A DNA stretch of 64,000 bases from Candidatus Latescibacterota bacterium. Lineage in GTDB: Bacteria; Latescibacterota; UBA2968; UBA8231. The notes below the pieces were generated by a model. That model was not told the DNA's origin, ran no database searches, and worked only from the letters and a program-made list of their open reading frames with translations. Location of the stretch: positions 2,528,001-2,592,000 of the forward strand of contig OZ242005.1 of the NCBI GenBank assembly GCA_965204725.1, in the 5' to 3' direction. Positions 22,406 through 54,149 of the stretch are shown here, in pieces. Within the stretch, counting starts at the first letter, position 1; each line of letters opens with the position of its first letter. The translations under genes were made by a program, and so were the position numbers.

Positions 22406-23161
22406 ATGCGACTTTCCCCGCGGGAAATCGACAAGCTAGTGCTGCACAACGCCGGGTTTGTCGCGCAAAAGCGCTATGCCCGCGGCCTGCGGCTCAACTA
22501 TCCAGAGGCGACCGCGCTGATCGCGGCGCAGTTGCTCGAGTTTATCCGCGATGGCGAGCGGGTCGCCACCTTGATGGACAAGGGCAAGCAATTGCTCGGG
22601 ATTGAAGAGGTGCTGCCGGGGGTGCCGGAGCTGGTCCACGAGGTGCAGGTCGAGGGTACGTTCCCCGACGGCACCAAGCTGGTGACGGTCCATCAGCCGA
22701 TCTGCCGGGAGCGCGGCAACGCCGAGTTGGCGCTCTATGGGTCGGGGCTGGTGCGCGAGGGGCCGACGTGGTCGCCGGACAATGCGTCCCGCGCGGCCGT
22801 TGGGGAAACGCTGGTGGCGGCTGACGAGCTCGCGCTCAATACAGGCCGCGAAAGGGTCGCGCTCGAAGTGGTCAACACGGGCGACCGCCCCGTGCAGGTG
22901 GGGTCGCACTTTCCCTTTTTTGAGGCCAACGCCGAGCTGCGTTTCGACCGCGCCCGAGCCTATGGTTTTCGCCTCGACATTCCCTCGGGAACGGCGGTGC
23001 GTTTCGAGCCGGGAGAGACCCAGACGGTGACGCTGGTCGCTGTCGCGGGCCAGCGCGTCGTCCAAGGCGGCAGCGGTTTGATTGGCGGGGCCTTGAGCGA
23101 TTCCAACAAGCAGGCGGCACTAGCCCGTGCGAAAGAGCGCGGCTTTTTGGGAGTGGAGTAG
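22406..23161 (+). CDS. ureAB: Urease gamma/beta fused subunit
   Basis: [11 protein letters not shown]...[17 protein letters not shown] (gamma), then [13 protein letters not shown]...[15 protein letters not shown] (beta). Confidence 0.96.
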
Positions 23162-23163
23162 CT

Positions 23164-24867
23164 ATGCGGATGGATCGACGCGCTTATGCGGATATGTACG
23201 GCCCCACCACCGGCGACCGGGTGCGGCTGGGCGACACGGATTTGGTCGTCGAGGTGGAAAAGGATCACACCGTATATGGCGAGGAGTGCAAGTTTGGCGG
23301 CGGCAAAGTGTTGCGCGACGGCATGGGGCAGCAGAGCGGCGCGAGCCAAAAAGAAGCGCTGGACTTGGTAATCACCAACGCGCTGGTGCTCGACTACACG
23401 GGCATCTACAAAGCCGATCTCGGCGTCAAGGACGGGCGTATCGCCGGGATTGGCAAGGCGGGCAACCCAGACATCATGCCGGGGGTGACCGAGCGGATGA
23501 TCGTCGGCGCGACCACCGAAGTGGTGGCCGGAGAAAAGCTGATTTTGACGGCCGGCGCACTGGACGTCCACGTCCACTTCATCTGCCCGCAGCAAGTGGA
23601 AGAGGCCATCGCCTCGGGCATCACCACGATGCTCGGCGGCGGCACCGGCCCGGCGACCGGAACGAATGCCACCACTTGTACCCCCGGTGCTTTTTACATC
23701 CGCACGATGCTACAGGCGGCCGATGCTTGGCCGCTCAACTTTGGCTTTTTGGGCAAGGGCAATTCGTCGGCGCGCCCAGGGCTGGCGGCGCAAATTGAGG
23801 CGGGGGCCTGCGGGCTCAAGCTGCACGAGGACTGGGGCACGACGCCAGCGACCATTGATGCGTGTCTGGCCGTCGCCGAAGAATTTGACGTGCAGGTTTG
23901 CATCCACACCGACACGCTCAACGAGTCCGGCTTTGTCGAGGCGTCGCGGGCGGCGTTCAAAAACCGGACGATTCACACCTACCACACCGAGGGGGCCGGC
24001 GGCGGCCACGCGCCCGACATTATGCGGCTTTGCGGCGAGGCCAATGTGCTGCCCTCCTCGACCAACCCGACGCGGCCCTTCACGGTCAACACGATCGACG
24101 AACACTTGGACATGCTGATGGTCTGTCACCACCTCGACAAGAACATTCCCGAGGACGTGGCGTTTGCCGAGAGCCGGATCCGCCAAGAGACCATCGCGGC
24201 CGAAGACGTTTTGCACGACTTGGGTGCGCTGTCGATTATCGCCTCGGACAGCCAAGCCATGGGCCGCGTGGGGGAGGTGGTGTGCCGAACTTGGCAGACG
24301 GCGCACAAGATGAGCCAACAGCGGGGCCGGTTGCCCCAAGACCCGGGCGGCAGCGACAACTATCGCGCCCGCCGCTACATCGCCAAATACACCATCAACC
24401 CGGCCCTCGCCCACGGGCTCTCGCCCCACATCGGCTCGGTGGAGACGGGCAAGCTGGCCGATCTGGTGTTGTGGCAGCCGGCTTTTTTCGGGGTCAAGCC
24501 CGAGCTCGTGATCAAAGGCGGGGTAATCGCCTACGCGCAAATGGGCGACGCCAATGCGTCCATCCCCACGCCGCAGCCCGTGTATCCGCGCCCCATGTTC
24601 GGCTCCTACGGCAACGCGGTGGGGCCGACCGGTCTGGCGTTTGTTTCACAGGCGTCGTGCGAGCAGGTGGGGGAGTACGGGTTGGCCAAAGAGATCGTGC
24701 CGGTTGCACATTGCCGCGACATTGGCAAGGCCGATATGCGGCTCAACGACGCCATGCCCAACCTAGAAGTGGACCCAGAGACCTATAAGGTGCGCATCGA
24801 TGGCCGAGAGATTACCTGCGCCCCGGCGGAAAAACTGCCGCTGGCGCAATTGTATCACCTGTTCTAA
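23164..24867 (+). CDS. ureC: Urease alpha (catalytic) subunit
   Basis: [59 protein letters not shown]. Confidence 0.98.
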
Positions 24868-24868
24868 G

Positions 24869-25521
24869 ATGAATCGCCTCTATCCGCTAATGCACCTCGC
24901 CGACAGCGCACTGCCGGCCGGCGGTTATGCCTTTTCCAATGGCTTGGAAGGGGCCTATCAGTTGGGCTTGCTCAATGCGTGCGGGGCGCTTGAAGAGTTC
25001 GTGCGCTCAGCACTAATGGCCGCGGCTTACGGCGAGATGCCCTTCATCCATTCCTGTTATGCCGAATCCGACGACGAGGCCCTAGCGGACATGCTGCATT
25101 TCTACGACGCGCTCATCGCGGCCCCAGCCATGCGCCGAGCGAGCTTGGTTTTGGGCAAGAACTGGTTGCGGCTGATGGCTGGCTTGTACCCGGAGGTCGA
25201 GTTTACAACCTTGCGGCCGGCCCCAGCGCATTATACGGTGGTTTTTGGGCTGGCGTTGAAGGCCACGGGCTTTGCCCAAGCCGACGCCCAGCGGCTTTAC
25301 ATGTTTCAGGTTCTCAGGGATCAACTGAGTGCTGCGGTGCGTCTCGGGGTCGTCGGGCCGCTGGAGGCCACGCGCAAGCAGTGGGGCCTGTATGGGCATT
25401 GCGAGGAATTGCTGGCGGAAGTGGCGGGCCGACCCTACGCCCAAGCGACGCGCTGTGCGCCCCAGCTCGACATCGCCCAGAGCACCCACGACGACCTCTA
25501 CTCGCGCCTTTTCCAAAGTTG

Positions 25522-25522
<1 letters not shown>
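24869..25522 (+). CDS. ureF: Urease accessory protein UreF
   Basis: [30 protein letters not shown]-terminal YSRLFQS. Confidence 0.93.
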
Positions 25523-26226
<704 letters not shown>

Positions 26227-26629: not shown

Positions 26630-27424
26630 ATGCGTGAAGCGTCACAGCCTCTCAACGCTTTGCCGCAAGGTTATCGGCTACAAGAATACGAACTGGTACG
26701 CGTGTTGGGCTTTGGCGGCTTCGGCATGACCTATTTGGGCTTTGACCACAACTTGGACAAGCCCGTCGCTATCAAGGAATATCTGCCGTCGGATATTGCT
26801 ACTCGCACTGCCGACCGTAGTGTCGCCGCGCAAGCCAGCGAGGTTCGGGGCGATTTTCAATGGGGGCTGGAGCGGTTCGTGGACGAGGCGCGTACCTTAG
26901 CTCGCTTTGATCATCGCCACATTATCAAGGTGCATCGTTTTTTTGAGGCGCATGGTACGGCCTATATCGTGATGGAATATGCCGAGGGCGAGACCTTATC
27001 GGCATATCTTGAGCGCAAGGGGTCGCTGAGCGAAGCGGAACTCAAAGCGATTCTGTATCCGCTGTTGGATGGGTTGGCGGTGGTGCATGGGGCGGACTTT
27101 CTGCACCGGGACATTAAGCCGGGCAACATCGTCTTGCGGGATGTGGATGGTTCGCCCGTGCTGTTGGACTTTGGGGCAGTACGTCAGGCGATTGGGGCGA
27201 AGAGTCGGTCGGTCACGTCTATCGTGACGCCCGGGTATGCGCCGATTGAACAGTATTCGACTCGGGGGCGTCAAGGGGCGTGGACGGATATATATGCGTT
27301 GGGGGGCGTGTGCTATCGGGCGTTGACGGGGGATGTGCCGGAGGATGCGACGGATGTTGGCATGGGTTGGTGTGTCGGACCGCTCAGGGGGTGTCTGGGG
27401 GGACGACAGGGCGGTGGTGGTTGA
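26630..27424 (+). pseudogene. Hanks-type Ser/Thr kinase, truncated shortly after subdomain IX
   Basis: GFGGFG, VAIKE, HRDIKPGN, DFG, APIEQ, DIYALG. Kinase-like sequence ends at GDVPEDATD (~27355) and runs into unrelated sequence. Confidence 0.8.
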
Positions 27425-27551
27425 GTTCATGACGAGCTTGGGGGTTGGCTTATCAGAAAAGGTCTCCGGGGCACCTTTTTGTGTCGATTGTGGTTTTTGT
27501 GTCTTTTTTCGTGGTTTTTGTGCTAAAAATCTTAACGTAGGAGGAGTGGTT

Positions 27552-27914
27552 ATGGTTGGTATGAGCAAGTCGGATGCGCGGGCGGAGTTGGATAGTCTGG
27601 GTATCGACTATACGGACGTGGATAAGTTTTTTGATTTGTTGGAGGAGGGCGCCTTAGCGCTTGGGGGGGCGGGCAACTTCGCGGTTGTCAAGCTGTTTGT
27701 GGTGGCGGGGATGGATGTGGACGCGAAGGACAGGGACGGCGGTACGGCGTTGCACTGGGCGGCGGATAGGGGTCGTTTGGATATAGTCAAGTTTTTGAAG
27801 TGTGCGGGAGCGAGTCTGCGAGATAGGGATGACGCTGGCTTGACGCCTCGGGGTAGGGCGGTAAGGAGGGGCCATACGGCGGTGGTGGATTATTTGGAGT
27901 CTGTGGGCGGGTAG
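27552..27914 (+). CDS. Short ankyrin-repeat protein
   Basis: RBS GGAGGAG, ATG at 27552. GGTALHWAADRGRLDIVKFL. Shares the ARAELDSLGIDYT N-cap with the next gene. Confidence 0.75.
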   Translation: MVGMSKSDARAELDSLGIDYTDVDKFFDLLEEGALALGGAGNFAVVKLFVVAGMDVDAKDRDGGTALHWAADRGRLDIVKFLKCAGASLRDRDDAGLTPRGRAVRRGHTAVVDYLESVGG

Positions 27915-28265
27915 GCTATCAGGGTCTTTCTACCGCTTGCGCGGACGGCTTGGTTGGTGTGTTGCTACATAGGTTGGGATGCAGGACCGCTTAGGAGGCG
28001 ACCTGGGGCGCGTGGGGGCGAGCGGGAGTTATCCACACGCTTCGAGTGACGGGGGGCGGGGGGGATCGGAAAGTGAATCGGCCTTGTGGGTGGAGATCGG
28101 ATGGCGGCGTTGGGTGTTTTTCGCGCAGGACTTCGGGTCAGGGTCGGGCGGGTTTGAATTTTTGAAAAAGTTATTTTTGGGGAAATTGTGTTTTTTGTGC
28201 GAATTGTGTCTTTTGTGCATTTTCGGCAGTCATTCATTGATCACTTCATACAGGGAGATTTAGTA

Positions 28266-29999
28266 ATGCGCTTTTTGCTGATGGTGTTGGTTGGCTTCGT
28301 GCTCAGTTGTGGCGATGGGGATCGGTCTGTTCAGGGACCGTCTGGTAAGGTGTCGGCGGATTGTTCGTTGGTGGAGATTTTTTCTGGTAAAGAGGGGTGT
28401 CAAGCGGATCCTTCATTAGATGAGGTGCCGGAGGGGTATGTGGCTCCAGTGGACAGCACGGAGACCGCGGATGCGGACAGTACGGCGGCTGGGTCTGAGA
28501 CTGAGACCGCGCCTTCGGACAGCACGGGTACTGAGACGGGTACTGCGCCTTCGGATACGACTGGGACTGAGACAGCACCCGCGGACAGCACTGAGCCTGC
28601 GGCTGAGACGCCTTCGGATACGTCTGGTTCTGATCCTGTGGTTCCTGAGCCTGTGATTATTCATGTGCCTGTGGAGGAGGAGCCTGATCCCGAAACGGCG
28701 CGGTCTGAGGCGGAGCCTGAGGACGAATCGTTGACGGCTGAACAAGCGCGGGCGCAGTTGGATAGTCTGGGTATTGCTTATACGGGCGCGGCGTTTCGTT
28801 TGGCGGCTCAGTCTGGCAACCTAGAGGTTGTTCAACTGTTCGTACAGGCGGGTATGTCTCTTGAGGAGGTGGATGACTACGACTGGACGGCGTTGTCCGA
28901 GGCGGCGTATGCAGGTCGCTTGGAGACCGTCAAGTATCTCGTGGGTCAAGGGGCGAATATCGAGGCCCGTGACGAGGACGGCTGGACGGTGTTGATGAAT
29001 GCGGCAGGCATAACGAACAACTTGTCGGTGGTTCGTTTTCTCGTGGAGTCTGGCGCGGATGTGCTCGCGGTTGGCGATGACCAACGGACGACCGCTTGGT
29101 CTGTGGCAATGACGGTGGGTAATACGGCGATTGCGGACTACTTGAAATCGCTGACCAACGCGGGAGATTCGGTTCCTCTATCGCGGGAAGAGGCCCGTGC
29201 GGAGTTGAGGCGGCTGGGTATTGATTATTCGGAAAATACGTTTTTTAGAGCGGCTGCGGGTGACGTATTAAACGCTTATGGTCAAGGTGTTAGTGGGGCT
29301 TATGGTTACGTTGGTGGGGCGAGCAATTTAGATGTTGTCAAATTGTTCGTGTGGGCCGGTTGGTCGGCAGATTATAGGGGCAGCAACTACGGCGAGACGG
29401 CGTTGCACAACGCGGCGGCGGGTGGTCATTTGGCGGCGGTTCGTTATCTCGTTGAGCAGGGGGCGGACCTTGAGGCTACGCGCTACGATGACTATACGGC
29501 GTTGCACAACGCGGCGGCGGGTGGTCATTTGGCGGTGGTTCGTTATCTCGTTGAGCAGGGGGCGGACCTTGAGGCTAAGAGCCGTTATGACTTTACGGCG
29601 TTGCTCTCTGCGGCGTATAGGGGTCATTGGGAGGTTGTAAAATTCTTAGTGGGTGCGGGTGCGGACCTTGAGGCTGCGTACTCCAGAGATTTGAGAAGCC
29701 GCAATGGTTTTACGGCGTTGCTCTTTGCGGTGGTGGGTGGTCGCTTGGATATGGTCAAGGTGTTAGTGGGTGCGGGGGCGGACGTGAATGTTAGGGCCAG
29801 AGAGTGGCCCTACTATCCGGCGTTGCATTATGCGGCGGTGGGTGGTCGCTTGGATATGGTCAAGGTGTTAGTGGGTGCGGGGGCGGACGTGAAAGCTACG
29901 ACCCACGTTGACAATACGGCGCGGGACGTGGCGAGGTCGAGTGGTCATACGGCGGTAGTGAATTATTTTGATTCGCTGGACGAGGACGATGACGAGTAG
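28266..29999 (+). CDS. Ankyrin-repeat lipoprotein with Ser/Thr/Asp-rich linker and acidic tail
   Basis: Lipobox-like VLSC. Two N-cap+ankyrin blocks, with near-exact 99-bp (29397/29496) and 105-bp (29732/29837) internal duplications. Ends DEDDDE. Confidence 0.88.
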   Translation: MRFLLMVLVGFVLSCGDGDRSVQGPSGKVSADCSLVEIFSGKEGCQADPSLDEVPEGYVAPVDSTETADADSTAAGSETETAPSDSTGTETGTAPSDTTGTETAPADSTEPAAETPSDTSGSDPVVPEPVIIHVPVEEEPDPETARSEAEPEDESLTAEQARAQLDSLGIAYTGAAFRLAAQSGNLEVVQLFVQAGMSLEEVDDYDWTALSEAAYAGRLETVKYLVGQGANIEARDEDGWTVLMNAAGITNNLSVVRFLVESGADVLAVGDDQRTTAWSVAMTVGNTAIADYLKSLTNAGDSVPLSREEARAELRRLGIDYSENTFFRAAAGDVLNAYGQGVSGAYGYVGGASNLDVVKLFVWAGWSADYRGSNYGETALHNAAAGGHLAAVRYLVEQGADLEATRYDDYTALHNAAAGGHLAVVRYLVEQGADLEAKSRYDFTALLSAAYRGHWEVVKFLVGAGADLEAAYSRDLRSRNGFTALLFAVVGGRLDMVKVLVGAGADVNVRAREWPYYPALHYAAVGGRLDMVKVLVGAGADVKATTHVDNTARDVARSSGHTAVVNYFDSLDEDDDE

Positions 30000-30031
30000 G
30001 TCTGTTTGTCTTATTCGTTGGTAGTTTCGGT

Positions 30032-30074
30032 ATAGGTCGGTGCTCGGTGGTATGGGGTGCCGACCTATTTTTTT
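30032..30074 (+). terminator. Intrinsic terminator
   Basis: ATAGGTCGGTGCTC...GGGGTGCCGACCTAT followed by a T run. Confidence 0.7.
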
Positions 30075-30436
30075 GCTTGTTTTGTGCGTTTTGTGCATAT
30101 CTAGGCAAATTTTTGTATGTCGGAAATGGAAAGTTTTCCAAATCCGACACGGATTGAGGCTGTTTGAGGCTGTAAAAAACTGTTTTTTATGGTGTGGGTC
30201 GGGTGAAAACTCGGTTTTTTTTTGTACCGATTCGTTTTTGCAGTGGGACATGGTGTCAACGGTTGTGCGGGCTGGCGGGGGGGGCTTTATCGGGTGCTCG
30301 ACTAGGCGACTAGGCGAATTGTGGCTTTTGTGCGAATTGTGCGTCTTGTGCGTCTTGGGTCTGTTGCGCGGTCAGGAACGTGTTTACAATTATGGTTCGA
30401 TTGTATCTCAATAATTTTACACAAAGGAGTGTTGCG

Positions 30437-31705
30437 GTGAAATCGCTATTGGGAATTTTGGCGTGTCTGTCGGTGTTGGTGATTGGTTGCGGTGAGGATA
30501 CGAAGCGGTCGGTGGGACCGTCAGCGGCGAAGGTGGCAAGTTCGACGCCTGAAACGGTGTGGACCAGTCTGAAGGCCGATGGCAAGTACACTACCGCAGG
30601 GTCGGCACTTGCGGCGTTTATCATGGCGGCGGCGGCGGGCGATCTGGCGGCGGTCAAGTTGTTTGTACAGGCTGGGGTCGATAAAGAGGGGCAATCTATT
30701 GTCAACATAGCGGGTATTGGTCGGTCACGGACTGCGCTTCATGCGGCGGCTCGTGGCGGTCATCGCGCTGTGGTTACGTACCTTCTTGGTCAGGGTGCGA
30801 GCGTTTCGTCCACGGACGGGTATGAGGACACGCCGCTTCATTCGGCGGTTGAGGCAGGAAATTTTTTGATGGTGCGGGAGCTTGTCGGTCAAGGGGCGAG
30901 TGTCGATGCTAAGAACACAGCGAGCGAGACCCCGTTGCATGTCGCGGTGGGCTATGGGCACTTGATGATTGTGAAGTATCTGGAAGGGCAAGGTGCCGAT
31001 CTTACAATCGCCTCCAGTGACGGCTTGACGCCCTGGGAGTTGGCGAAGCTTTGGGATAGTAGTACGGCGATAGTGACGTTCTTGGATTCGACGACGGCGC
31101 GGGCGTTTGTTGATTCGGCTGGGGCGGGCAACTTAGAAGTTGTCAAGTCATTGGTAACGGCGGGTATGCCGGTTGAGACTAAGGTCGAATACTATGACGG
31201 GCGCGATAGTCCAAGCTGGACGGCACTGCTTAGGGCGGCGTGGAAGGGTCATCTGGCTGTGGTTGAGTATCTGATCGGGAAGGAGGCGGATGTGGATGAG
31301 GTGGTCGGGTTCTTCCGTGCTGACGGTTCATATATTGCTACCTCTTATGGCGAGACAGCTCTGTACTTGGCGGCGGCGGGTGGTCATACGGCGGTGGCGA
31401 AGGCGTTGTTGGCTGCGGGTGCGACGGTGGATGCTAGGACCTATTTTTCCTATACCCCTTTGCACCTAGCGGCGTGGAATGGTCATCTGGCTATCGTCCA
31501 GTATCTGATTAGTTACGGGGCGGATGTGAATACTCCGACCGGCGGCACTGGCAGGACGCCTCGTTACTTCGCGGAGGATTGCATAAGGCAGGATGCGGCT
31601 ATGCTTCCCGACAAAGCTGCCCGTTGCCGGTTGGTGGTGGCTTATTTAGACACGCTGCTGCCCGATGACGATGACGATGACGACGACGATGACGACGACG
31701 AGTAG
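30437..31705 (+). CDS. Ankyrin-repeat lipoprotein with poly-Asp tail
   Basis: RBS AAGGAG, GTG at 30437. Lipobox LVIGC, TALHAAARGGH / TPLH repeats, ends D11E. Confidence 0.88.
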   Translation: MKSLLGILACLSVLVIGCGEDTKRSVGPSAAKVASSTPETVWTSLKADGKYTTAGSALAAFIMAAAAGDLAAVKLFVQAGVDKEGQSIVNIAGIGRSRTALHAAARGGHRAVVTYLLGQGASVSSTDGYEDTPLHSAVEAGNFLMVRELVGQGASVDAKNTASETPLHVAVGYGHLMIVKYLEGQGADLTIASSDGLTPWELAKLWDSSTAIVTFLDSTTARAFVDSAGAGNLEVVKSLVTAGMPVETKVEYYDGRDSPSWTALLRAAWKGHLAVVEYLIGKEADVDEVVGFFRADGSYIATSYGETALYLAAAGGHTAVAKALLAAGATVDARTYFSYTPLHLAAWNGHLAIVQYLISYGADVNTPTGGTGRTPRYFAEDCIRQDAAMLPDKAARCRLVVAYLDTLLPDDDDDDDDDDDDE

Positions 31706-33117: not shown

Positions 33118-34101
33118 ATGGCCGAATACGATACCATTTCCAAACACCTGATCCAAACCTACCCCGACGACTTCGTCCGCTTCACCCTCCAACGCGACGA
33201 TGTGGCGGTCTGCGAAGTCCTAGACCCGGTGCAACCCACCGTTGAATCCCACCAAACCGATAGCCTCCTGCTCGTCCAGATCGCCGGCGAGGAGGCGTTG
33301 GTGCATCACGAATTCCAAACCACCGACCACCCGCTCATGCCGCTCCGCATGGCCAGCTATATCATCCGCGCCATTGAGCACCATCGCCAGCCGGTCTATT
33401 CCAGCGTGATCTACCTGCGGCCTGATGCCGGTCGGCGCGATCCGGGCTACTACGCCCAAGACCTGCCCGGCCACCGCATCTTGGTACAATACAAGGTCCT
33501 TCGGTTGAGCGAGATCGACGGGCAAGCGCTGGTCCAAGGCGGTCCGTCGGGCTTGCTTCCGTTCACGCCCTTGATGAAGCCGCCAGCGGGCATGGCCGCG
33601 GAAGCGTGGTTGCGCCAGTGCATTCAGGCGACCCAAGCCGTGCCGTTGGACCCGGCGGTCAAGGTTGACTTTTTGGGCGGCTTGGCGATACTGAGTGGGT
33701 TAGCGTACGAGTGGACCACCATTCAACGTATTATTTCTCAGGAGGGTCTTATGGACACGATCATGCGCGAATCATCCTTTGCCCAATACCTCACCCAACA
33801 GGGCCTTGAGCAGGGCATTAAGCAGGGCCTTGAGCAGGGCCTTGAACAGGGCCTTGAGCAGGGCCTTGAACAGGGTATTGAGCAGGGCCTTGAGCAGGGC
33901 CTTGAGCAGGGAGGCCGACAACGCGCCATTGAAGATATTCTTGACGTGTTGGAGATTCGCTTTGGGCCGGCCTCCGCCCATTCATTGGCCGCCCGCATTG
34001 CCGCGCTGGACGATTTGCACCGGCTCAAGCAGTTGCATCGCACAGCGGTGCAAGCCGCCGATCTGGCGACCTTTCAGCGGCACTTGGATAGCACCGAGTG
34101 A
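33118..34101 (+). CDS. Rpn/YhgA-like PD-(D/E)XK recombination-promoting nuclease / putative transposase
   Basis: YDTISKHL...P.DF, HHEFQT, MPLRMASY, VIYL, LLPFTPLM, GLEQ repeats, LEIRFG C-terminal domain. Confidence 0.8.
   Translation: MAEYDTISKHLIQTYPDDFVRFTLQRDDVAVCEVLDPVQPTVESHQTDSLLLVQIAGEEALVHHEFQTTDHPLMPLRMASYIIRAIEHHRQPVYSSVIYLRPDAGRRDPGYYAQDLPGHRILVQYKVLRLSEIDGQALVQGGPSGLLPFTPLMKPPAGMAAEAWLRQCIQATQAVPLDPAVKVDFLGGLAILSGLAYEWTTIQRIISQEGLMDTIMRESSFAQYLTQQGLEQGIKQGLEQGLEQGLEQGLEQGIEQGLEQGLEQGGRQRAIEDILDVLEIRFGPASAHSLAARIAALDDLHRLKQLHRTAVQAADLATFQRHLDSTE
33799..33911 (+). repeat. 12-bp tandem repeat (CAGGGCCTTGAG x9) encoding QGLE
   Basis: Nine full units read directly, with minor variants. 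Confidence 0.95.
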
Positions 34102-46775: not shown

Positions 46776-47738
46776 ATGCCAGAACGCGTACAGATCGTAG
46801 TGCCCGGCGACAATCCCACTCAGATCGCCGGTTCGCCGCATTTGCAGCGGCTCGCGCCCTACGGGGACGTCACCCTGTTTGCGGATACGCCGCAAAGCGC
46901 GGGCGAGAAAATCGCCCGGGCCGAGGGGGCCCAAATCATCATCAACTCGCGCGGGGTCGTCACGTGGCGCGAGGAAATGCGCCGCTTGCCCGCGCTCAAA
47001 ATGATCGCCACCTGCTCCATCGGCACGGACATGATCGACTTGGCGATTGCCAAGGAGTGCGGAATCGTGGTGTCGAACCAGCCCGGCCGCACCGCGCCCG
47101 TGGTGGCCGAACACATGTTCGGGCTGATGTTTGCCCTGTCCAAGCGCGCTTATTTTCAGACGGCCGAGCTCAAGGCGGGGCGCTGGACGCGCAAGATGAA
47201 CACCATGCTACAGGGCAAGGTGCTGGGCGTGGTCGGCACGGGGCCGATTGGCGCGGAGATGGCGCGGTTGGGGCGGGCTATCGGCATGGAGGTCATCGCG
47301 TGGACCTTTCATCCGTCGCCGCAGCGTGCGGCCGAATACGGGGTGCGCTTCGTCGCGCTCGACGAGCTGTTGCAGACAGCGGACGTGGTCAGCCTGCACG
47401 TGCGGCTGACCGAGGATACTCGGCACTTGCTCGGGGCGCGCGAGTTTGGCCTAATGAAGGAGGGGGCGCTGGTGTTGAACGGCGCGCGCGGCGATGTGCT
47501 CGACATCCATGCCTTACGCACGGCCCTGTTGTCCGGGCATTTGGGCGGCGCCGGGCTCGACGTATTTTCACAGGAGCCGCTGCCGAGCGACGACCCCATT
47601 CTCGATTGCGAGCAGGTGGTGCTGACGCCGCATGCCGCGGATCAAACGCCTGAGGGAGTGGATTTGTTGAACGAGGGCGCGGTAGATAATGTGATTGCGT
47701 TTTTGCAGGGGCGGCCGCAAAACAACGTGGCCGTGTGA
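46776..47738 (+). CDS. D-2-hydroxyacid dehydrogenase (SerA/glycerate DH-like)
   Basis: VAEH, GVVGTGPIG, DVVSLH, N.ARG, AGLDVF..EP, LTPH. Confidence 0.92.
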   Translation: MPERVQIVVPGDNPTQIAGSPHLQRLAPYGDVTLFADTPQSAGEKIARAEGAQIIINSRGVVTWREEMRRLPALKMIATCSIGTDMIDLAIAKECGIVVSNQPGRTAPVVAEHMFGLMFALSKRAYFQTAELKAGRWTRKMNTMLQGKVLGVVGTGPIGAEMARLGRAIGMEVIAWTFHPSPQRAAEYGVRFVALDELLQTADVVSLHVRLTEDTRHLLGAREFGLMKEGALVLNGARGDVLDIHALRTALLSGHLGGAGLDVFSQEPLPSDDPILDCEQVVLTPHAADQTPEGVDLLNEGAVDNVIAFLQGRPQNNVAV

Positions 47739-47772: not shown

Positions 47773-48483
47773 ATGAATGACGAAAAGCAGCTAGAACGAG
47801 AAAACAAGAAATTTGTCGCGGCCTTGGGGCGCGAGCCGTCCTTGGAAGCAGTGGACGATGCGAAGCGGACGGATCTGCACCATGCAGCCGCATTGAACCT
47901 GCCCGCCCTTTCTACCTTCCTGCTGCACGGCGGGGCCGATGTCAACGCCAAGGACGAGGAAGGGATGATACCGCTGCACAGCGCGTCAATGAAGGATGCG
48001 CTTGAGGTCGCGAGGATTTTGCTGGACCGCGACACAGATGTCAACGCCAAGGACAAGGACGGCCTGACGCCCCTGCATGTTGCGACCGCACGGAATGCGC
48101 TGACGGTGGCGGAGTTTCTGCTCGAAAACGGCGCGGATATCAACGCCAAAAACTACTACAATGGCCTGACGCCTTTGCACCTTGCAACCGCGCGGAATGA
48201 GGTGGCGGTGGCGGAGTTTCTGCTCGAAAACGGCGCGGATGCCAACGCCAAGAACTACCACGACGGCCTGACGCCCCTGCACATTGCGACGATGCGGAAT
48301 GTTTTTCGGGTAGCCGAAATTTTGCTCGACAACGGCGCAGATGTCAACGCCAAGACGCGCGACGGCTGGACGCCGCTGTTTCTTGCCAAGCACAAAAAAG
48401 ACACGGTCGGGTTGGTGCTTCGCTTCTTTGGGATGGAGACGAGTATGGTTCGTTTGTTGCGCTGGCACGGGGGCGAGGAATAA
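47773..48483 (+). CDS. Ankyrin-repeat protein (no N-terminal anchor)
   Basis: About six GLTPLH...LLENGADVNAK repeats. Confidence 0.9.
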   Translation: MNDEKQLERENKKFVAALGREPSLEAVDDAKRTDLHHAAALNLPALSTFLLHGGADVNAKDEEGMIPLHSASMKDALEVARILLDRDTDVNAKDKDGLTPLHVATARNALTVAEFLLENGADINAKNYYNGLTPLHLATARNEVAVAEFLLENGADANAKNYHDGLTPLHIATMRNVFRVAEILLDNGADVNAKTRDGWTPLFLAKHKKDTVGLVLRFFGMETSMVRLLRWHGGEE

Positions 48484-48517
48484 ACAGTTGGGAGCACGTC
48501 AAACGAAAGGAAAACCC

Positions 48518-49546
48518 ATGAAAAACGTCGAGCAGGATGCGCCGCCACTAAAGCAGCCTAAGCAGCCCCGACCTAAGCGGCTTGCCCTAGCCTTGGGCGT
48601 GGCGGCGGTCTTGGTGGGGGGCATAATGTGTGGTGGACAGGACTCGGAGATGGACCCCGCAGAAAACGAGAGCTGGACGCTACTGCATCACGCGGCGTGG
48701 AAGGATTCTTCTGCGACAGCGAAGATGCTGCTGGAAAACGGAGCAGACCCAAACGCAAAAGACGACGAGGACCGGACGCCCCTGCACTGGGCGGCGTCGG
48801 GTCGTGCCATTGCGACGACGACGATGCTGCTCGAAAACGGAGCAGACGCAAGAGCAAAAGACAGCGAGGGCAAGACATCGCTGCACTGGGCGGCGTCTTC
48901 TAATGCCGATATGGTAACAACGATGTTGCTGGAAAACGGGGCGGACGTAAACGCAAAAGACGACGAGGACCGGACGCCCCTGCACTGGGCGATATCTTTT
49001 GGTGCCGTTGCGACCGCAAAGGTGTTGCTGGAAAGCGGCGCAGACGTAAACGCAAAAAACAACCACAGCCGGACGCCCCTGCACGAAACGGCGTGGCAGA
49101 AAGCGGCGGCGGCGGCGAGGATATTGCTGGAAAACGGCGCGGATGCAAACGTCAAAAGCAGCAAAGGCCGGACGCCCCTGCACGAAACGGCGGCGACGGA
49201 TGCGGCGGCGGTGGCGATGCTGCTGCTGGAGAACGGCGCAGACGTAAACGTCCGAGAAAACGAGGGCAGAACGCCGCTGCACGAAGCGGCGGGGAAGGAT
49301 GCCGTTGCGACCGCGAAGGTGTTGTTAGAAAATGGAGCGGATGTAAACGCCAAGAGCAACAAGGGCCGGACGCCCCTGCACTGGGCGGTGGTAGTGGATG
49401 CGGCGGCGACAACAAAAGTGTTGCTGGAAAACGGAGCACACGTAAACGCCCAGGACAACGAAGGCTGGACGCCGCTAATCTGGGCGGAGTTTAAGAATGC
49501 CGCTGCGGCAACGGAGGTATTGCACCAGTACGGTGCGCGCAAGTGA
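48518..49546 (+). CDS. Membrane-anchored ankyrin protein, 9 repeats
   Basis: Leader MKNVEQDAPP...LALALGVAAVLVGG, ankyrin repeats, C-cap ...YGARK. Confidence 0.92.
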   Translation: MKNVEQDAPPLKQPKQPRPKRLALALGVAAVLVGGIMCGGQDSEMDPAENESWTLLHHAAWKDSSATAKMLLENGADPNAKDDEDRTPLHWAASGRAIATTTMLLENGADARAKDSEGKTSLHWAASSNADMVTTMLLENGADVNAKDDEDRTPLHWAISFGAVATAKVLLESGADVNAKNNHSRTPLHETAWQKAAAAARILLENGADANVKSSKGRTPLHETAATDAAAVAMLLLENGADVNVRENEGRTPLHEAAGKDAVATAKVLLENGADVNAKSNKGRTPLHWAVVVDAAATTKVLLENGAHVNAQDNEGWTPLIWAEFKNAAAATEVLHQYGARK

Positions 49547-49577
49547 AAGGCTCAGTTTCCAATGGCAAGGAAAACCC

Positions 49578-50291
49578 ATGAAAAGCGTTGAGCCGGACGC
49601 GCCGCCACGGGAGCGGCCTGAGAAGACCCGATTTAAGCAGCTTGCCGTAGCCTTGGGCGTGGCGGCTGTCTTGGTTGGGGGCCTATCCCTATTCACCGCC
49701 AAAAACGACGCCGGACGGACACCCCTGCACGAAGCGGCGAGAGCAGATGCTACGGCGACCGCGAAGATGCTGCTCGAAAACGGAGCACACGTAAACGCAA
49801 AAGACAACAGGGGCCGGACGCCCCTACAAAGAGCGGCGGGGGTGGATGGGGCGGCGACCGCGAAGATGCTGCTCGAAAACGGGGCGCACGTAAACGCAAA
49901 GGACAACGACGGCTGGACACCGCTGCACGGAGCGGCGTTTGCGGATGGGGCGGCGACCGCGAAGATGCTGCTGGAAAACGGAGCACACGTAAACGCAAAA
50001 GACAACAAGAGCCGGACACCGCTACACGAAGCGGCGTTTGCGGATGCGGCGGCGACCGCGAAGATATTGTTGGAAAACGGGGCGCACGTAAACGCAAAAA
50101 GCAACAAGGGCCGGACGCCCCTGCACTGGGCGGTGGTAGTCGATGCGGCGGCAACAACAAAAGTGTTGCTGGAAAACGGAGCACACGTAAACGCAAAAGA
50201 CAACGAGGGCTGGACGCCCCTGATCTGGGCGGAGTTTAAGAATGCTGATGCGGCAACGGAGGTGTTGCACCAGTACGGTGCGCGCAAGTGA
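49578..50291 (+). CDS. Membrane-anchored ankyrin protein, 6 repeats
   Basis: Same leader and C-cap; RBS AAGGA. Confidence 0.92.
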   Translation: MKSVEPDAPPRERPEKTRFKQLAVALGVAAVLVGGLSLFTAKNDAGRTPLHEAARADATATAKMLLENGAHVNAKDNRGRTPLQRAAGVDGAATAKMLLENGAHVNAKDNDGWTPLHGAAFADGAATAKMLLENGAHVNAKDNKSRTPLHEAAFADAAATAKILLENGAHVNAKSNKGRTPLHWAVVVDAAATTKVLLENGAHVNAKDNEGWTPLIWAEFKNADAATEVLHQYGARK

Positions 50292-50329
50292 AAGGCTCAG
50301 TTTCCAATGGAGCTTGGCAAGGAAAACCT

Positions 50330-51244
50330 ATGAAAAACGTTGAGCCGGATGCGCCGCCACGGGAGCGGCCTGAGAAAACCCGATTTAAGCGGCTTGCCGT
50401 AGCCTTGGGCGTGGCGGCTGTCTTGGTTGGGGGCCTATCCCTGCTCACGGCCAAAAACGACGAAGGCGGGACGCCCCTGCACGAAGCGGCGAAGGCGGAT
50501 GCGGCGGCGACGGCAAAGATACTGCTGGAAAACGGAGCAGACGTAAATGCCCAAGACGATAAAGGCCGGACGCCGCTACACCGGGCGGCGAGGAAGGATG
50601 CCGTTGCAACAGCGAAGATACTGCTGGAAAACGGAGCAGACGTAAACGCAAAAAACAACAAGAGCCGGACACCCCTGCACGAAGCGGCGACAACAGATGC
50701 TGCTACGACGGCGAAGCTACTGCTAGAAAACGGCATAGCGGTAAACGCAAAAGGCAACAACGACCGGACACCCCTGCACGAAGCGGCGAGGACAGATGCT
50801 GCTACGACCGTGAAGATGCTGCTAGAAAACGGGGCAGACGTAAACGCAAAAAATAACGGAGGCCGGAGGCCGCTGGACCACGCGGCGGCGAATGATGCCG
50901 TTGCGACGGCGAAGCTACTGCTGGATAACGGAGCAGACGTAAACGCAAAAGACTACAACGGCTGGACACCGCTGCACTGGGCGGCGTTTGCGGATGCCGT
51001 TGCGACGGCGAAGATGCTGCTGGATAACGGAGCGCACACAAACGCAAAAGACAACGAAGGCTGGACGCCCCTGCACGAAGCGGCGAAGGCGGATGCGGCG
51101 GCAACAGCGAAGATACTGCTGGAAAACGGGGCAGACGTAAACGCAAAAGACAACGAAGGCTGGACGCCCCTGCACTGGGCGGAAGTTAAGAGTGCCGCTG
51201 CGACAGTGGAGGTGTTGCGCCGGTACGGGGGCGTTGGAGGCTAG
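50330..51244 (+). CDS. Membrane-anchored ankyrin protein, 8 repeats
   Basis: Same leader; C-cap WAEVKSAAATVEVLRRYG. Confidence 0.92.
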   Translation: MKNVEPDAPPRERPEKTRFKRLAVALGVAAVLVGGLSLLTAKNDEGGTPLHEAAKADAAATAKILLENGADVNAQDDKGRTPLHRAARKDAVATAKILLENGADVNAKNNKSRTPLHEAATTDAATTAKLLLENGIAVNAKGNNDRTPLHEAARTDAATTVKMLLENGADVNAKNNGGRRPLDHAAANDAVATAKLLLDNGADVNAKDYNGWTPLHWAAFADAVATAKMLLDNGAHTNAKDNEGWTPLHEAAKADAAATAKILLENGADVNAKDNEGWTPLHWAEVKSAAATVEVLRRYGGVGG

Positions 51245-51258
51245 TGTCGTGTAGTAAG

Positions 51259-51382
51259 GGCAGGACCTATCGGGGCTTTGACCACAGTTTGAATAAGCCC
51301 GTCGCCATCAAGGAATACCGGCCCACCGACATTGCCACCCGCACCGCAAGCCAGCGACTTTCACAGCGACTTCCCATGGGGC
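51259..51382 (+). pseudogene. Ser/Thr kinase remnant (subdomains I-II to DF.WG)
   Basis: TYRGFDHSLNKPVAIKEYRPTDIATRT aligns with the kinase at ~26723-26866, with an internal deletion. Confidence 0.85.
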
Positions 51383-51386
51383 ACCA

Positions 51387-52001
51387 ATGAAAAGCGTTGA
51401 GCCGGATGCGCCGCCACGGGAGCGGCCTGAGAAGACCCGATTTAAGTGGCTTGCCGCAGCCTTGGGCGTGGTTGCCCTCTTGGTTGGGGGCCTATCCCTG
51501 CTCACCGCCAAAGACGACAGAGACCGGACGCCCCTGCACTACGCAGCGAGGAAAGATGCCGTTGCAACAGCGAAGCTACTGCTGGAAAACGGAGCAGACG
51601 TAAACGCAAAAGCCAATAGAGGCCAGACGCCCCTGCACGAAACGGCGTGGATGGATGCGGCGGCGACCGCGAAGCTATTGCTGGAAAACGGGGCAGACGT
51701 AAATGCAAAAAACAACCACAGCCGGACGCCCCTGCACTACGCGGCGTGGAAGGATGCCGTTGCAACAGCGAAGGTGTTACTGGAAAACGGGGCAGACGTA
51801 AATGCCCAAGACGACAAAGGCTGGACGCCCCTGCACAAAACGTCGTGGATGGATGCGGCGGCGACCGCGAAGCTATTGCTGGAAAACGGGGCAGACGTAA
51901 ATGCCAAGGACAACGAGGGCTGGACGCCCCTGATCTGGACGGAGTTTAAGAATGCCGATGCGACAACGGAGGTGTTGCACCGGTACGGTGCGCGAAAGTG
52001 A
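51387..52001 (+). CDS. Membrane-anchored ankyrin protein, 5 repeats
   Basis: Same leader and C-cap. Confidence 0.9.
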   Translation: MKSVEPDAPPRERPEKTRFKWLAAALGVVALLVGGLSLLTAKDDRDRTPLHYAARKDAVATAKLLLENGADVNAKANRGQTPLHETAWMDAAATAKLLLENGADVNAKNNHSRTPLHYAAWKDAVATAKVLLENGADVNAQDDKGWTPLHKTSWMDAAATAKLLLENGADVNAKDNEGWTPLIWTEFKNADATTEVLHRYGARK

Positions 52002-52039
52002 AAGGCTCGACTTCCCATGGGGCTTGGCAAGGAAAACCA

Positions 52040-53083
52040 ATGAAAAGCGTTGAGCCGGATGCGCCGCCGCTAGAGCCGCCTAAGAAGCCCCGATTTAAGC
52101 GGCTTGCCGCAGCCTTGGGCGCGGTTGCCCTCTTGGTTGGGGGCATAATGTATGTTGGCTCCCTGCTCACATCGGGCGCGGACGTAAACACCCAAGACAA
52201 CAACGAATGGACGCCCCTGCACGAAGCGGCGTGGAAGGATGATTCTGCGACCGCAACGGTGTTGCTGGAGAACGGGGCGCACGTAAACGCAAAAGAAAAG
52301 AACGGCTGGACACCCCTGCATGAAGCAGCGAGGGCGGATGCCGTTGCAACAGTGAAGGTGCTGCTCGAAAACGGAGCAGACGTAAACGCAAAAAACAACG
52401 AGGGCAAGGTGCCCCTGCACTACGCGGCGGGGGCGGATGCCGCTGCGACCGCAAAGGTGTTGCTCGAAAACGGGGCGCACGTAAACACAAAAGACAACAA
52501 CGAGGGCAAGGCCCCCCTACACTACGCGGCGATAGTGGCTACTGCTGCGACCGCAAAGGTGTTGCTGGAGAACGGAGCGCACGTAAACACCCAAGACAAC
52601 AACGAATGGACACCCCTGCACGAAGCAGCGAAGACGGATGCCGCTGTAATAGCGGAGGTGCTGCTCGAAAATGGCGCAGACATAAACGCAAAAGACTACA
52701 ACGGCTGGACGCCCCTGCACGAAGCGGCGTGGAAGGATGCCGTTGCGACTGCGGAGGTGTTGCTCAAAAACGGCGCAGACGTAAACACCCAAGACAGCAG
52801 GGGCTGGACGCCCCTGCACTGGGCGGCGTCTTACGATGTCTCTGCGGCAGCGAAGCTGTTGCTAGATAACGGAGCGGACGCAAACGCAAAAACCAATAAG
52901 GGCCGGACGCCCCTGCACCGGGCGGCGTGGAATGATGCTGCGGCGACCGCGGAGGTGTTGCTCGAAAACGGCGCAGACGTAAACGCCAAAAACAACCATG
53001 GCTGGACGCCCCTGCACTGGGCGGAGGTTAAGAATGCCGCGGCAACAGCGGAGGTACTGCGCCGGTACGGTGCGCGAAAGTGA
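52040..53083 (+). CDS. Membrane-anchored ankyrin protein, 9 repeats
   Basis: Same leader; C-cap WAEVKNAAATAEVLRRYGARK. Confidence 0.92.
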   Translation: MKSVEPDAPPLEPPKKPRFKRLAAALGAVALLVGGIMYVGSLLTSGADVNTQDNNEWTPLHEAAWKDDSATATVLLENGAHVNAKEKNGWTPLHEAARADAVATVKVLLENGADVNAKNNEGKVPLHYAAGADAAATAKVLLENGAHVNTKDNNEGKAPLHYAAIVATAATAKVLLENGAHVNTQDNNEWTPLHEAAKTDAAVIAEVLLENGADINAKDYNGWTPLHEAAWKDAVATAEVLLKNGADVNTQDSRGWTPLHWAASYDVSAAAKLLLDNGADANAKTNKGRTPLHRAAWNDAAATAEVLLENGADVNAKNNHGWTPLHWAEVKNAAATAEVLRRYGARK

Positions 53084-53141
53084 AAGGCGCGGACCGGCGA
53101 TGTCAGGTGATTCGGTTGATCGGGTTGGATGGCGAGACGTA

Positions 53142-53251
53142 TTCGCGGCCGATTTCCAATGGGGCTTGGAGCGATTCTTGGACGAAGCCCGCACCTTGGC
53201 GCGGTTCCAGCACCCCAACATCGTCCGCGTCCTTCACTTCTTTGAAGCGCA
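53142..53251 (+). pseudogene. Ser/Thr kinase remnant (subdomains III-IV)
   Basis: DFQWGLERFLDEARTLARFQHPNIVRVLHFFEA aligns with the kinase at ~26844-26952. Confidence 0.85.
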
Positions 53252-53303
53252 ATTGCAGGGCGAACCAACCCGCACCGTCACCAACCAACGCAAAGGAGAA
53301 GCT

Positions 53304-54149
53304 ATGTTTCGCTCACTATCGCCGGGGGCCATCGGCGCAAGCGTAGAAAACCTCGCCGACGGGCTTGATTTGGCCGCACGGCACGGGTTCGCTGGGTATC
53401 ACTTTAGCATCGGCGAAGTCGCGACCATGGGCGCGGAAGAGGCCCTCGCGTTGGCCGAGCGCAAGGGCGTGCGCCTGTCGGCGTGGGGATTCCCCGTCGA
53501 TTTTCGCGGGGCGGAGGCCGCATACCAAGCGAGCTTGGCGCAGTTGCCGACCTTGGCCAAAGTAGCCGCGGCCTTGGGGGTGCGGCGGACGGCGACTTGG
53601 ATCATGCCGGCCTCGGACGAGTTGACCTATCAAGAGAACTTCGCCTTTCACGTTGAGCGGCTGCGGCCGGCCGCGGCCATACTCGCCGACGAAGGCGTGT
53701 GGTTGGGCTTGGAATACGTCGCGCCGAAAACCTCGCGGGCGAGCAAGCAATACGAGTTTGTCCACACGATGGCGCAAATGGCGGAACTGGGCCAAGCCGT
53801 AGGCGAGAACGTGGGCTTTCTGCTCGATAGCTGGCATTGGTACACGGCCAGCGAAACCGCGGCGGATGTGCGCCGCCTGCGCGCTCAGCAAGTGGTCGAT
53901 GTTCACGTCAACGACGCACCGGCCGGCGTGGAAATTGACGACCAACTCGACAACGTGCGCGACTTGCCTGGGGCGACCGGCGCAATCGACATTGCGGCGT
54001 TCCTCAGCGCCTTACAGCACATTGGCTACGACGGCCCGGTCATGGTCGAGCCGTTCAGCCAGCGCGTGCGCGCCATGGAGCGGGAAGAAGCGGTGGCAGC
54101 TACGACCGCCGCGCTGGGCCGCGTGTGGGAGCAAGCCGGACTCAGCTAA
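53304..54149 (+). CDS. Sugar-phosphate isomerase/epimerase family protein
   Basis: RBS AAGGAG, ATG at 53304. GLEY, LDSWHWY, VHVND, LPGATG.ID, YDGPVMVEPFS. Confidence 0.88.
   Translation: MFRSLSPGAIGASVENLADGLDLAARHGFAGYHFSIGEVATMGAEEALALAERKGVRLSAWGFPVDFRGAEAAYQASLAQLPTLAKVAAALGVRRTATWIMPASDELTYQENFAFHVERLRPAAAILADEGVWLGLEYVAPKTSRASKQYEFVHTMAQMAELGQAVGENVGFLLDSWHWYTASETAADVRRLRAQQVVDVHVNDAPAGVEIDDQLDNVRDLPGATGAIDIAAFLSALQHIGYDGPVMVEPFSQRVRAMEREEAVAATTAALGRVWEQAGLS

Follow-up and report, generated by a model that had tools for sequence, protein, structure and literature searches.

How does a piece of a protein kinase gene come to stand, repeatedly, between the ankyrin genes of a bacterium? 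The question is raised by a 64-kb stretch of the genome of a Candidatus Latescibacterota bacterium (contig OZ242005.1, positions 2,528,001 to 2,592,000; hereafter the window), in which six ankyrin genes on one strand are bordered by D, which encodes a 2-hydroxyacid dehydrogenase, and T, which encodes a xylose-isomerase-like TIM-barrel protein. One of the six is leaderless, the other five (A1 to A5) begin with a leader that contains a predicted transmembrane (TM) helix, and the junctions along the array (J0 to J5) hold a recurrent kinase-like motif and two longer kinase remnants, R1 and R2. The initial annotation had proposed that ankyrin cassettes were repeatedly inserted or amplified at a specific site within a kinase gene. 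Our analysis indicates that the locus is probably a decayed tandem array of receptor-type Hanks kinase/ankyrin paralogs in a hypervariable island, and that ordinary gene-family turnover has shaped it. Coordinates without the prefix C1 are positions in the window, C1 is a contig of this genome (G000), and the other G0xx labels denote 30 genomes of the same genus.

The motif itself proved to be real. The 16-nt sequence TTCCMATGGRGCTTGG was found in three copies in the window, at 50302, 52012 and 53154, with 0 of 100 shuffles containing any match, and in four copies in the 5.43-Mb genome, of which the fourth, at C1:4492912, encodes DFQWGL in a kinase paralog; J1 contains a further copy, at 49556-49565, that lacks 7 nt. 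J1, J2 and J4 share the layout TGAAAGGCTC...CAAGGAAAACCNATG, their stop-to-ATG spacers measure 31, 38 and 38 nt, and the alignment among them is continuous through the stop codon, the spacer and the leader; J0, upstream of A1, contains no kinase patch. Collecting the contexts of the 16-mer from this genome and the fetched loci yielded 15 distinct ones, of which 13 were the FQWGLE codons of kinases (12 reading DF[QP]WGLE and one, in G011, VFQWGLE) and two were J2 and J4. The spacer segment is kinase-derived, as the initial annotation had claimed, and the recurring "site" is probably leftover kinase-gene scrap that was copied along in the tandem duplication of the ankyrin genes. The locus has the properties of a tandem array, namely head-to-tail units on the same strand, homology that runs through the junctions and recent within-genome duplicates.

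R1 and R2 had been taken for collinear pieces of the kinase family represented at 26630-27424, whose product matched Pkinase (PF00069) with an E value of 2.6e-36 and 125.8 bits against a cut-off of 31.7. Using tblastn, 51259-51369 was matched to residues 32-68 of this kinase and the sequence from 53148 onward to residues 74 onward; at the nucleotide level 51259-51347 corresponds to codons 32-61 and 53145-53262 to codons 73-112. Beyond a 20-nt deletion R1 continues through codons 67-79, with DFPWG at 51368-51382 as read by eye from the sequences. The two remnants thus do meet at DF[Q/P]WG, with robust homology overlapping only around codons 73-79. At 48 and 36 codons, and lacking catalytic motifs, they are pseudogene remnants. 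They do not, on the other hand, stem from one split kinase enclosing two cassettes. Two kinase subtypes were distinguished in the genome, A (GFDHNLDKPVAIKEYLPSDIATRTA... and ...FDHRHIIKV) and B (GWNLALDIPVAIKEYLPGDLATREQ... and ...FQHPNIVRV). R1 showed 85% nucleotide identity (76/89) to the A-type genes K4494306 and K2660777, 81% to a third A-type gene and 70-74% to B-type genes; R2 showed 89-91% identity to B-type and 73-79% to A-type genes. R1 is thus of subtype A and R2 of subtype B, which argues against their being the two halves of an insertion target. Most B-type kinases encode FQWGLE in the same way, so the same 16-mer appears in R2.

The surroundings of R2 point in the same direction. 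The stop codon of A5 and R2 are separated by 61 nt, within which 53104-53143 matches an internal part of a YhgA-like gene at 38 of 40 nt. Loose ends of paralog contigs begin exactly at 53143, and others at 53145 and 53251, which are the limits of R2 homology; on the right, 53275-53303 is the native upstream region of T (33/35 nt identity to G046). In G046 the gene order YhgA-like gene, B-type kinase, T is still intact, and in G019 a YhgA-like gene also lies directly 5′ of a B-type kinase. With a YhgA-like fragment on its left and the native upstream region of T on its right, collinear with the order in G046, R2 is by sequence comparison the vestige, still in place, of the island's resident last B-type kinase, shortened by deletions on both sides; its left flank is a gene fragment in ancestral order and no cassette end. 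At 53084-53103, a match of 17/22 nt and the same TGA + 16 nt + ATG spacing as at three other loci were noted, a weak resemblance by eye comparison only. Two extensions of R2 were tried and rejected: for the notion that it keeps its own start and codons ~60-72, a gap-tolerant alignment returned only scattered blocks in a stretch that is mostly a fragment of another gene, and 53252-53274 as the 3′-end of the last kinase was unsupported by comparison.

At J3, R1 directly adjoins the end of a dispersed repeat. For 51233-51261, 36 of 47 blastn-short rows ended at the same terminus, and most flanks showed the palindromic core of the repeat upstream; since J3 holds the terminus of a dispersed repeat next to R1, it is a patchwork of deletion scars. 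The repeat, ~100-130 nt long with the palindromic core GGGATCGAGGGCGTCCCGCCCTCGACGAGGGCAAGATGCCCTCGATCC and terminating in GGCTRGTGTCGTGTAGTAAG, occurs at many sites, for example at C1 1870278, 3680215 and 4744950, and looks like a miniature inverted-repeat transposable element or a repetitive extragenic palindromic-type element.

The leader links A1 to A5 to receptor kinases. In 5/5 leader-bearing genes it contains one hydrophobic 19-mer at residues 22-40, preceded by a positively charged, Pro/basic flank. With the 45-aa leader of A5 as tblastn query, two matches were obtained just 3′ of kinase domains, one of 67% over 39 aa (E 1e-9) and the other of 70% over 33 aa (E 3e-10). Full-length kinase-TM-ankyrin genes with the same leader were found twice in this genome (C1:4494306-4496105, 599 aa; C1:2658381-2660777, 798 aa) and further ones in relatives, where the leader/TM end (aa 337-342) of a 342-aa query was contiguous with the kinase match in 14 matches in 12 other genomes. 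The order in these genes is Hanks kinase, linker, ...SV(R/K)RVEQ(D/E)A...LERPxK..F(K/R), TM helix, EQRREQAALEKQ coiled-coil repeats and ankyrin repeats, and the full-length paralogs contain HRDIKPGN and DFG. In the family at large, 7968 of 8000 scored candidate proteins matched at E<=1e-20, mostly with Pkinase plus Ank. The proposal that the leader is the juxtamembrane and TM part of receptor-type Hanks kinases is supported. The kinase must be cytoplasmic because it needs ATP, and a cytoplasmic kinase together with the positive flank before the helix would place the ankyrin repeats outside the membrane; the repeats of A1 to A5 are thus probably membrane-anchored and facing outward. The further suggestion that such repeats are swappable ectodomains holds in so far as kinases of the family bear varied C-terminal domains that have been exchanged over evolutionary time, but not as cassette insertion at a specific site.

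Comparison with the relatives showed that the interval between D and T is hypervariable. D is present in 30/30 other genomes of the genus (identity 83-97%) and T in 29/30. The gap between them, 5.6 kb in this genome, is 17-156 nt in six genomes, ~0.85 kb in three, 2.5-32.7 kb in 17 and unassessable in three, so that the measurable gap in 26 relatives ranges from 17 nt to ~33 kb; in G046, D and T are on opposite strands at a distance of 118 kb. It seems that large rearrangements have a breakpoint in the island. Intervals of >=3.2 kb mostly contain protease, FHA, vWA and PP2C genes together with A- and B-type kinases that bear varied C-terminal domains, often in tandem, and G019 carries four full-length kinase-ankyrin genes in tandem. 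First genes resembling the leaderless ankyrin gene of this island (MDxxKQLxKEKKxF...) come after D in G002, G042, G005, G043, G004, G019, G007 and G046. A protease/FHA/vWA/PP2C/kinase cluster, situated between D and T in relatives, was seen here at C1:4484117-4496250, ~1.9 Mb away.

G046, the closest relative by D (97% identity), holds the orthologous array of D, ank266, four leader-ankyrin genes and a B-type kinase, and the 27-nt patch is absent from it. Two of its junctions read TGAAAGG|AAAACCAATG (= TGAAAGG|AAAACCAATGAAAAGC), which equals J4 without a 27-nt stretch flanked by AAGG repeats; at a third, the usual ankyrin-to-kinase spacer is joined straight to the leader codons ERPKQTRFK. A search for the start-context pattern with <=2 mismatches in the 30 other genomes gave ankyrin-array junction matches only in G046, there patch-free, so the patch junction is absent from all of them, which speaks against a shared insertion site. 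Kinase-less derivatives with differing breakpoints were found in G046, G019, G007, G044 and G011. In G019 the kinase-less N-termini read MSEEQ|LKRQKKTRFK and MSEQQ|YNDDEQQRQEQAF, in G007 MGQKKTRFK, and in G044 kinase codons 1-36 are joined to ERKKRLAAIL; other kinase remnants in the present genome break at codons ~43, 61 and 242, and the right end of R2 lies at 112. Because the breakpoints differ among relatives, the loss of kinase domains, as traced in these sequences, is recurrent and not bound to one site. A repeated kinase segment of codons 73-89 in G011 and G007 was considered as a second case of the site and rejected for G011, where it is a local tandem duplication of ~90 nt. There, codons ~63-88 of a B-type kinase (G011:C1:3175500-3176060, minus strand) are duplicated, and the gene is disrupted, with a stop codon in frame.

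Parts of the array appear to be young. At the nucleotide level the A2, A3 and A4 leaders share 90-93% identity with one another and 70-83% with G046 genes, which suggests that part of the array was recently duplicated in this lineage; the leader of A5 is nearest to G046 B1/B2 (86-87%). Strains were compared through short-read contigs from four runs (X1, X2, X4 and X5) of four studies, and the window sequence is present in runs labelled sponge metagenome, while no RNA data set was listed as containing it. J3 (51146-51412) showed 0 differences in the contigs of X1, possibly the source sample, and X2. At J5, X1 also showed 0 differences, and X2 spans the junction with 6 differences over a 691-nt piece. 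A contig of X5 has 7 nt (TGGGGCT) missing from J1. A single unit is bypassed at two contig joints, 50434>51493 in X5 and 51454>52114 in X4, each joining one leader to another; because the contigs are short-read assemblies of a repeat array, the joints are no more than hints.

The order of events that we infer is as follows. In their full form the paralogs would run from a cytoplasmic kinase through a Pro/basic linker and a single TM helix to a coiled coil and ankyrin repeats outside the cytoplasm, and deletion of the kinase domains would have left the five stand-alone leader-TM-ankyrin genes. In a founding rearrangement, codon ~80 (DFQWGL) of an A-type kinase may have been joined to the 5′ region of a stand-alone ankyrin gene, at about position -15. 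This event would have been either a tandem duplication with one end in a kinase or a deletion reaching from a kinase to the ankyrin gene that follows it. The junction would later have been copied by tandem duplication or unequal crossing-over, and small deletions would have worn the copies unequally, leaving a 124-nt stub at J3, the 27-nt patch at J2 and J4, 20 nt at J1 and none in the sister genome. R2 would be separate from the founding event, the last B-type kinase having been reduced by two deletions. Tandem duplication and small deletions account for J1 to J4 in this way, the outcome that the initial annotation had itself named as refuting site-specific cassette insertion.

Several observations weigh against this reconstruction. 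The founding junction is not reconstructable and occurs in no relative or metagenome contig (0 exact matches), and the patch-free junction of the sister genome could be ancestral rather than eroded. The left homology limit of R2 (codon 73) falls within a few codons of the right limit of R1 (codon 79), a closeness that the model leaves unexplained and that we take as coincidence, with a chance of roughly 1 in 12 by our own rough estimate without a formal test. The last 15 nt of R1 (GACTTCC...GGGGC) are closer to subtype B than to the A-type genes of this genome, and among the A-type genes of relatives GACTTCC was found in 4/14 and GGGGCTTGG in 1/14. Finally, the unit-skipping joints, whose sides measure 44 and 70 nt, were seen in short-read contigs across repeated sequence, so that misassembly could explain them.

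Of the other explanations, the one that fares best, though we consider it improbable, is an internal microhomology deletion, in which each stand-alone gene would derive from one kinase-TM-ankyrin gene after slippage between TGGGGCTTGG (DFQWGL) and GGGGGCGTGG (VGAWRE, just past the kinase domain) had removed codons ~80-285, so that the sequence right of the patch (AAGGAAAACC..ATG) would be kinase linker. The two sites are 8/9 nt alike and one base out of phase, which fits the observed frameshift, and in the frame of the ATG the patch reads GAWQGKPM, like VGAWREAM of the full-length genes. However, beyond GGGGC.TGG the patch region matches the linker only poorly in nucleotide sequence, and the region right of the patch (AAGGAAAACCNATG with ~15-30 nt further upstream; ..CAC.TCA.ACG.AAGGAAAACCNATG) is also present, patch-free, at J0, at C1:2658016 and at the first array gene of G046. 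Since it is found upstream of patch-free stand-alone genes, this region looks like a separate 5′ region and not like linker.

A lineage-specific gain, in which the 27-nt patch was placed into a patch-free junction by templated insertion or gene conversion from a kinase paralog and then spread by duplication, is very improbable. It would agree with the patch-free junctions of G046 and with a patch that is in frame with a GTG start overlapping the upstream stop codon. Against it, J3 contains 124 nt of collinear kinase sequence ending in the same 16 nt (CGACTTCCCATGGGGC) as J4, the erosion of a long stub is simpler than the collinear extension of a 16-nt patch, and the 7-nt strain difference at J1 points to ongoing erosion.

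Insertion or amplification of ankyrin cassettes by an integron-like or other site-specific system at the kinase DFQWG site, with a recombinase cutting at TTCCMATGGGGCTTGG and R1 and R2 as the halves of the target, draws on the position of the R1 end and of the R2 robust-homology start, both in codons 73-79, on the same 15-16 nt at J2 and J4, truncated at J1, and on the nearness of a multi-copy YhgA-like gene (with a sub-threshold Transposase_31 match) to several kinase-ankyrin loci, but it is hardly credible given the different subtypes of R1 and R2, the ancestral flank of R2, the relatives without the patch junction and their kinase-less genes, which break elsewhere. The trans-acting recombinase for which the initial annotation had advised a search did not appear either: no integrase or recombinase was found among 33 Pfam-scanned open reading frames (ORFs) of the window (13 from the two ankyrin clusters or their vicinity, 20 from elsewhere in the window), whose Pfam families were metabolic, ankyrin and kinase only, and the array is bordered by the dehydrogenase and TIM-barrel genes. 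The J1, J2 and J4 spacers did not fold better than shuffled sequence on either strand (200 shuffles per spacer, z between +0.48 and +1.30), with no dedicated attC model run, and the exact junction patterns had 0 matches in metagenome_contigs and genome_contigs. The array does resemble integron gene cassettes in its short same-strand genes with a recurring short sequence between them; unlike in integrons, there is no intI among the 33 scanned ORFs, no attC-like fold and no cassette boundary, and the recurring sequence is pseudogene scrap. The integron-like reading is thus largely refuted here.

The features of the island and its borders are collected in Table 1. Each of the six ankyrin genes (47773-53083) matched PF00023 with E values of 2e-35 to 5e-66 and several repeats above the gathering score, and A1 to A5 each have their own ribosome-binding site (AAGGA) and ATG. 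Matches to NCBIfam models of Legionella Ank effectors were set aside, as all were far under the cut-offs and reflect a generic ankyrin-repeat signal.

Table 1. Features of the island between D and T in the window.
Feature	Position	Strand	Evidence and remarks
D, 2-hydroxyacid dehydrogenase	46776..47738	+	Pfam 2-Hacid_dh_C, E 6e-55; conserved left border of the variable island
ank236, leaderless ankyrin gene	47773..48483	+	Pfam Ank, E 1.8e-40; conserved first island gene
A1, leader + TM + ankyrin	48518..49546	+	Pfam Ank, E 7e-62; TM at aa 22-40
J1 spacer	49547..49577	+	TGA + AAGGCTCAG + TTTCCAATGG (kinase patch minus 7 nt) + CAAGGAAAACCC
A2, leader + TM + ankyrin	49578..50291	+	Pfam Ank; TM prediction; leader 90-93% nt identity to A3 and A4
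J2 spacer with kinase patch TTCCAATGGAGCTTGG (50302-50317)	50292..50329	+	Junction alignment, motif scan
A3, leader + TM + ankyrin	50330..51244	+	Pfam Ank; last codons (GVGG*) come from repeat-element scrap
3′-terminal ~29 nt of dispersed repeat, GTTGGAGGCTAGTGTCGTGTAGTAAGGGC	51233..51261	+	blastn-short
R1, subtype-A kinase stub	51259..51382	+	Codons ~32-61, 20-nt deletion (frameshift), codons 67-79; ends DFPWG
A4, leader + TM + ankyrin	51387..52001	+	Pfam Ank, TM; ATG overlaps the TGA of the stub ORF
J4 spacer with kinase patch TTCCCATGGGGCTTGG (52012-52027)	52002..52039	+	CGACTTCCCATGGGGC in common with the R1 end
A5, leader + TM + ankyrin	52040..53083	+	Pfam Ank, TM; leader nearest G046 B1/B2 (86-87%)
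Short spacer + ATG	53084..53103	+	17/22 nt; weakly like the usual spacer from ankyrin stop to next kinase start
YhgA-like multi-copy gene fragment (codons KVIRLIALDGETY)	53104..53143	+	38/40 nt to C1:2656221-2656183
R2, subtype-B kinase vestige	53145..53251	+	Codons 73-108; DFQWG at 53151-53165
T coding sequence (likely start 53304) with its native upstream region	53275..54149	+	Pfam AP_endonuc_2, E 1e-28; right island border

Two ORFs in the array are annotation traps. A spurious ORF of 383 aa (52998-54149) begins within the 3′-end of A5, takes in the R2 kinase scrap and continues into T, whose probable real start is 53304, and a spurious 48-aa ORF (51244-51390) consists of the R1 stub, its TGA overlapping the ATG of A4. 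Over the array (48001-54000) a strong AT skew of 0.20-0.36 was seen, which reflects the A-rich coding strand of the repeats. A second kinase/ankyrin cluster of the window (26630-31705) comprises an A-type kinase cut after codon ~242 and, following it, three ankyrin genes of another type, whose tails are acidic (poly-D/E); it has an unusually high GC skew of 0.26-0.32, and structural and accessory urease genes (gamma/beta fusion, alpha and UreG-like; 22406-26226) lie just 5′ of it.

The YhgA-like family comprises ~17 dispersed copies with an (EQGL)n repeat, for example 33118-34101 and C1:2655623-2656603, besides the fragment at 53104-53143, and its copies or fragments adjoin kinase-ankyrin loci in this genome, G019 and G046. 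With the N-terminal 220 aa of the 33118-34101 product, PF04754 gave an E value of 0.13 and 12.2 bits against a cut-off of 21, and the product had no sequence match in PDB; the label 'YhgA-like' and the nearness to kinase-ankyrin loci are to be read as a lead. A second short dispersed repeat was noted at C1:2658017-2658185 (minus strand), where 170 nt separate a kinase stub (codons 1-61) from a stand-alone ankyrin gene: 42 nt of this stretch recur twice in the G007 island at 97.6% identity, with shorter or less similar matches at three other sites of the present genome.

Tandem duplicates of bacterial kinases were reportedly described by Perez et al. in 2008, as cited in PMC11032199. Work by Nguyen, Reynolds and Thomas reportedly gives sponge-symbiont ankyrin proteins a role in modulating host phagocytosis. 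Membrane-spanning Hanks-type Ser/Thr kinases with periplasmic repeat arrays and lineage-specific or tandem expansion are described from Planctomycetota and Myxobacteria, and in the parts of that source consulted ankyrin is mentioned only as a domain shared with eukaryotic kinases (PMC11032199). The present family resembles those kinases, as far as they are described there, in its cytoplasmic Pkinase domain, single TM helix, C-terminal repeats predicted to lie outside, adjacent paralogs and recurrent architectures (PMC11032199); it differs in that the outside domain is ankyrin and not WD40/TPR, and in that the array is losing kinase domains. Sponge-associated metagenome-assembled genomes of Latescibacterota are reported to carry several ANK-domain genes (PMC12993501). 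The array is like the ankyrin 'eukaryotic-like proteins' of sponge symbionts in its occurrence in sponge metagenome runs and unlike their descriptions in that A1 to A5 descend from receptor kinases and have a predicted membrane anchor. The literature searched provided context only, and contained no description of this type of locus, or of kinase descent or a membrane anchor for such ankyrin genes.

These results remove a tempting reading of the locus as a new cassette-capture system and make it a well-documented case of birth-and-death evolution at one intergenic site that ranges from empty to ~33 kb across the genus. At the D-T site, receptor-type kinase/ankyrin genes duplicate, swap their C-terminal domains and lose their kinase halves; of interest are chiefly the hypervariable island and the clarity with which repeated kinase loss is recorded, the components being otherwise of known kinds. 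A more far-reaching proposal, which we regard as doubtful, is that ankyrin receptor kinases of this sponge-associated lineage repeatedly shed their kinase (in at least five genomes) to become membrane-anchored decoys or adhesins, with the D-T island as a generator of surface-ankyrin diversity in which YhgA-like genes could supply RecA-independent breaks. For sponge symbiosis, the array suggests that some ankyrin "eukaryotic-like" genes descend from bacterial receptor kinases.

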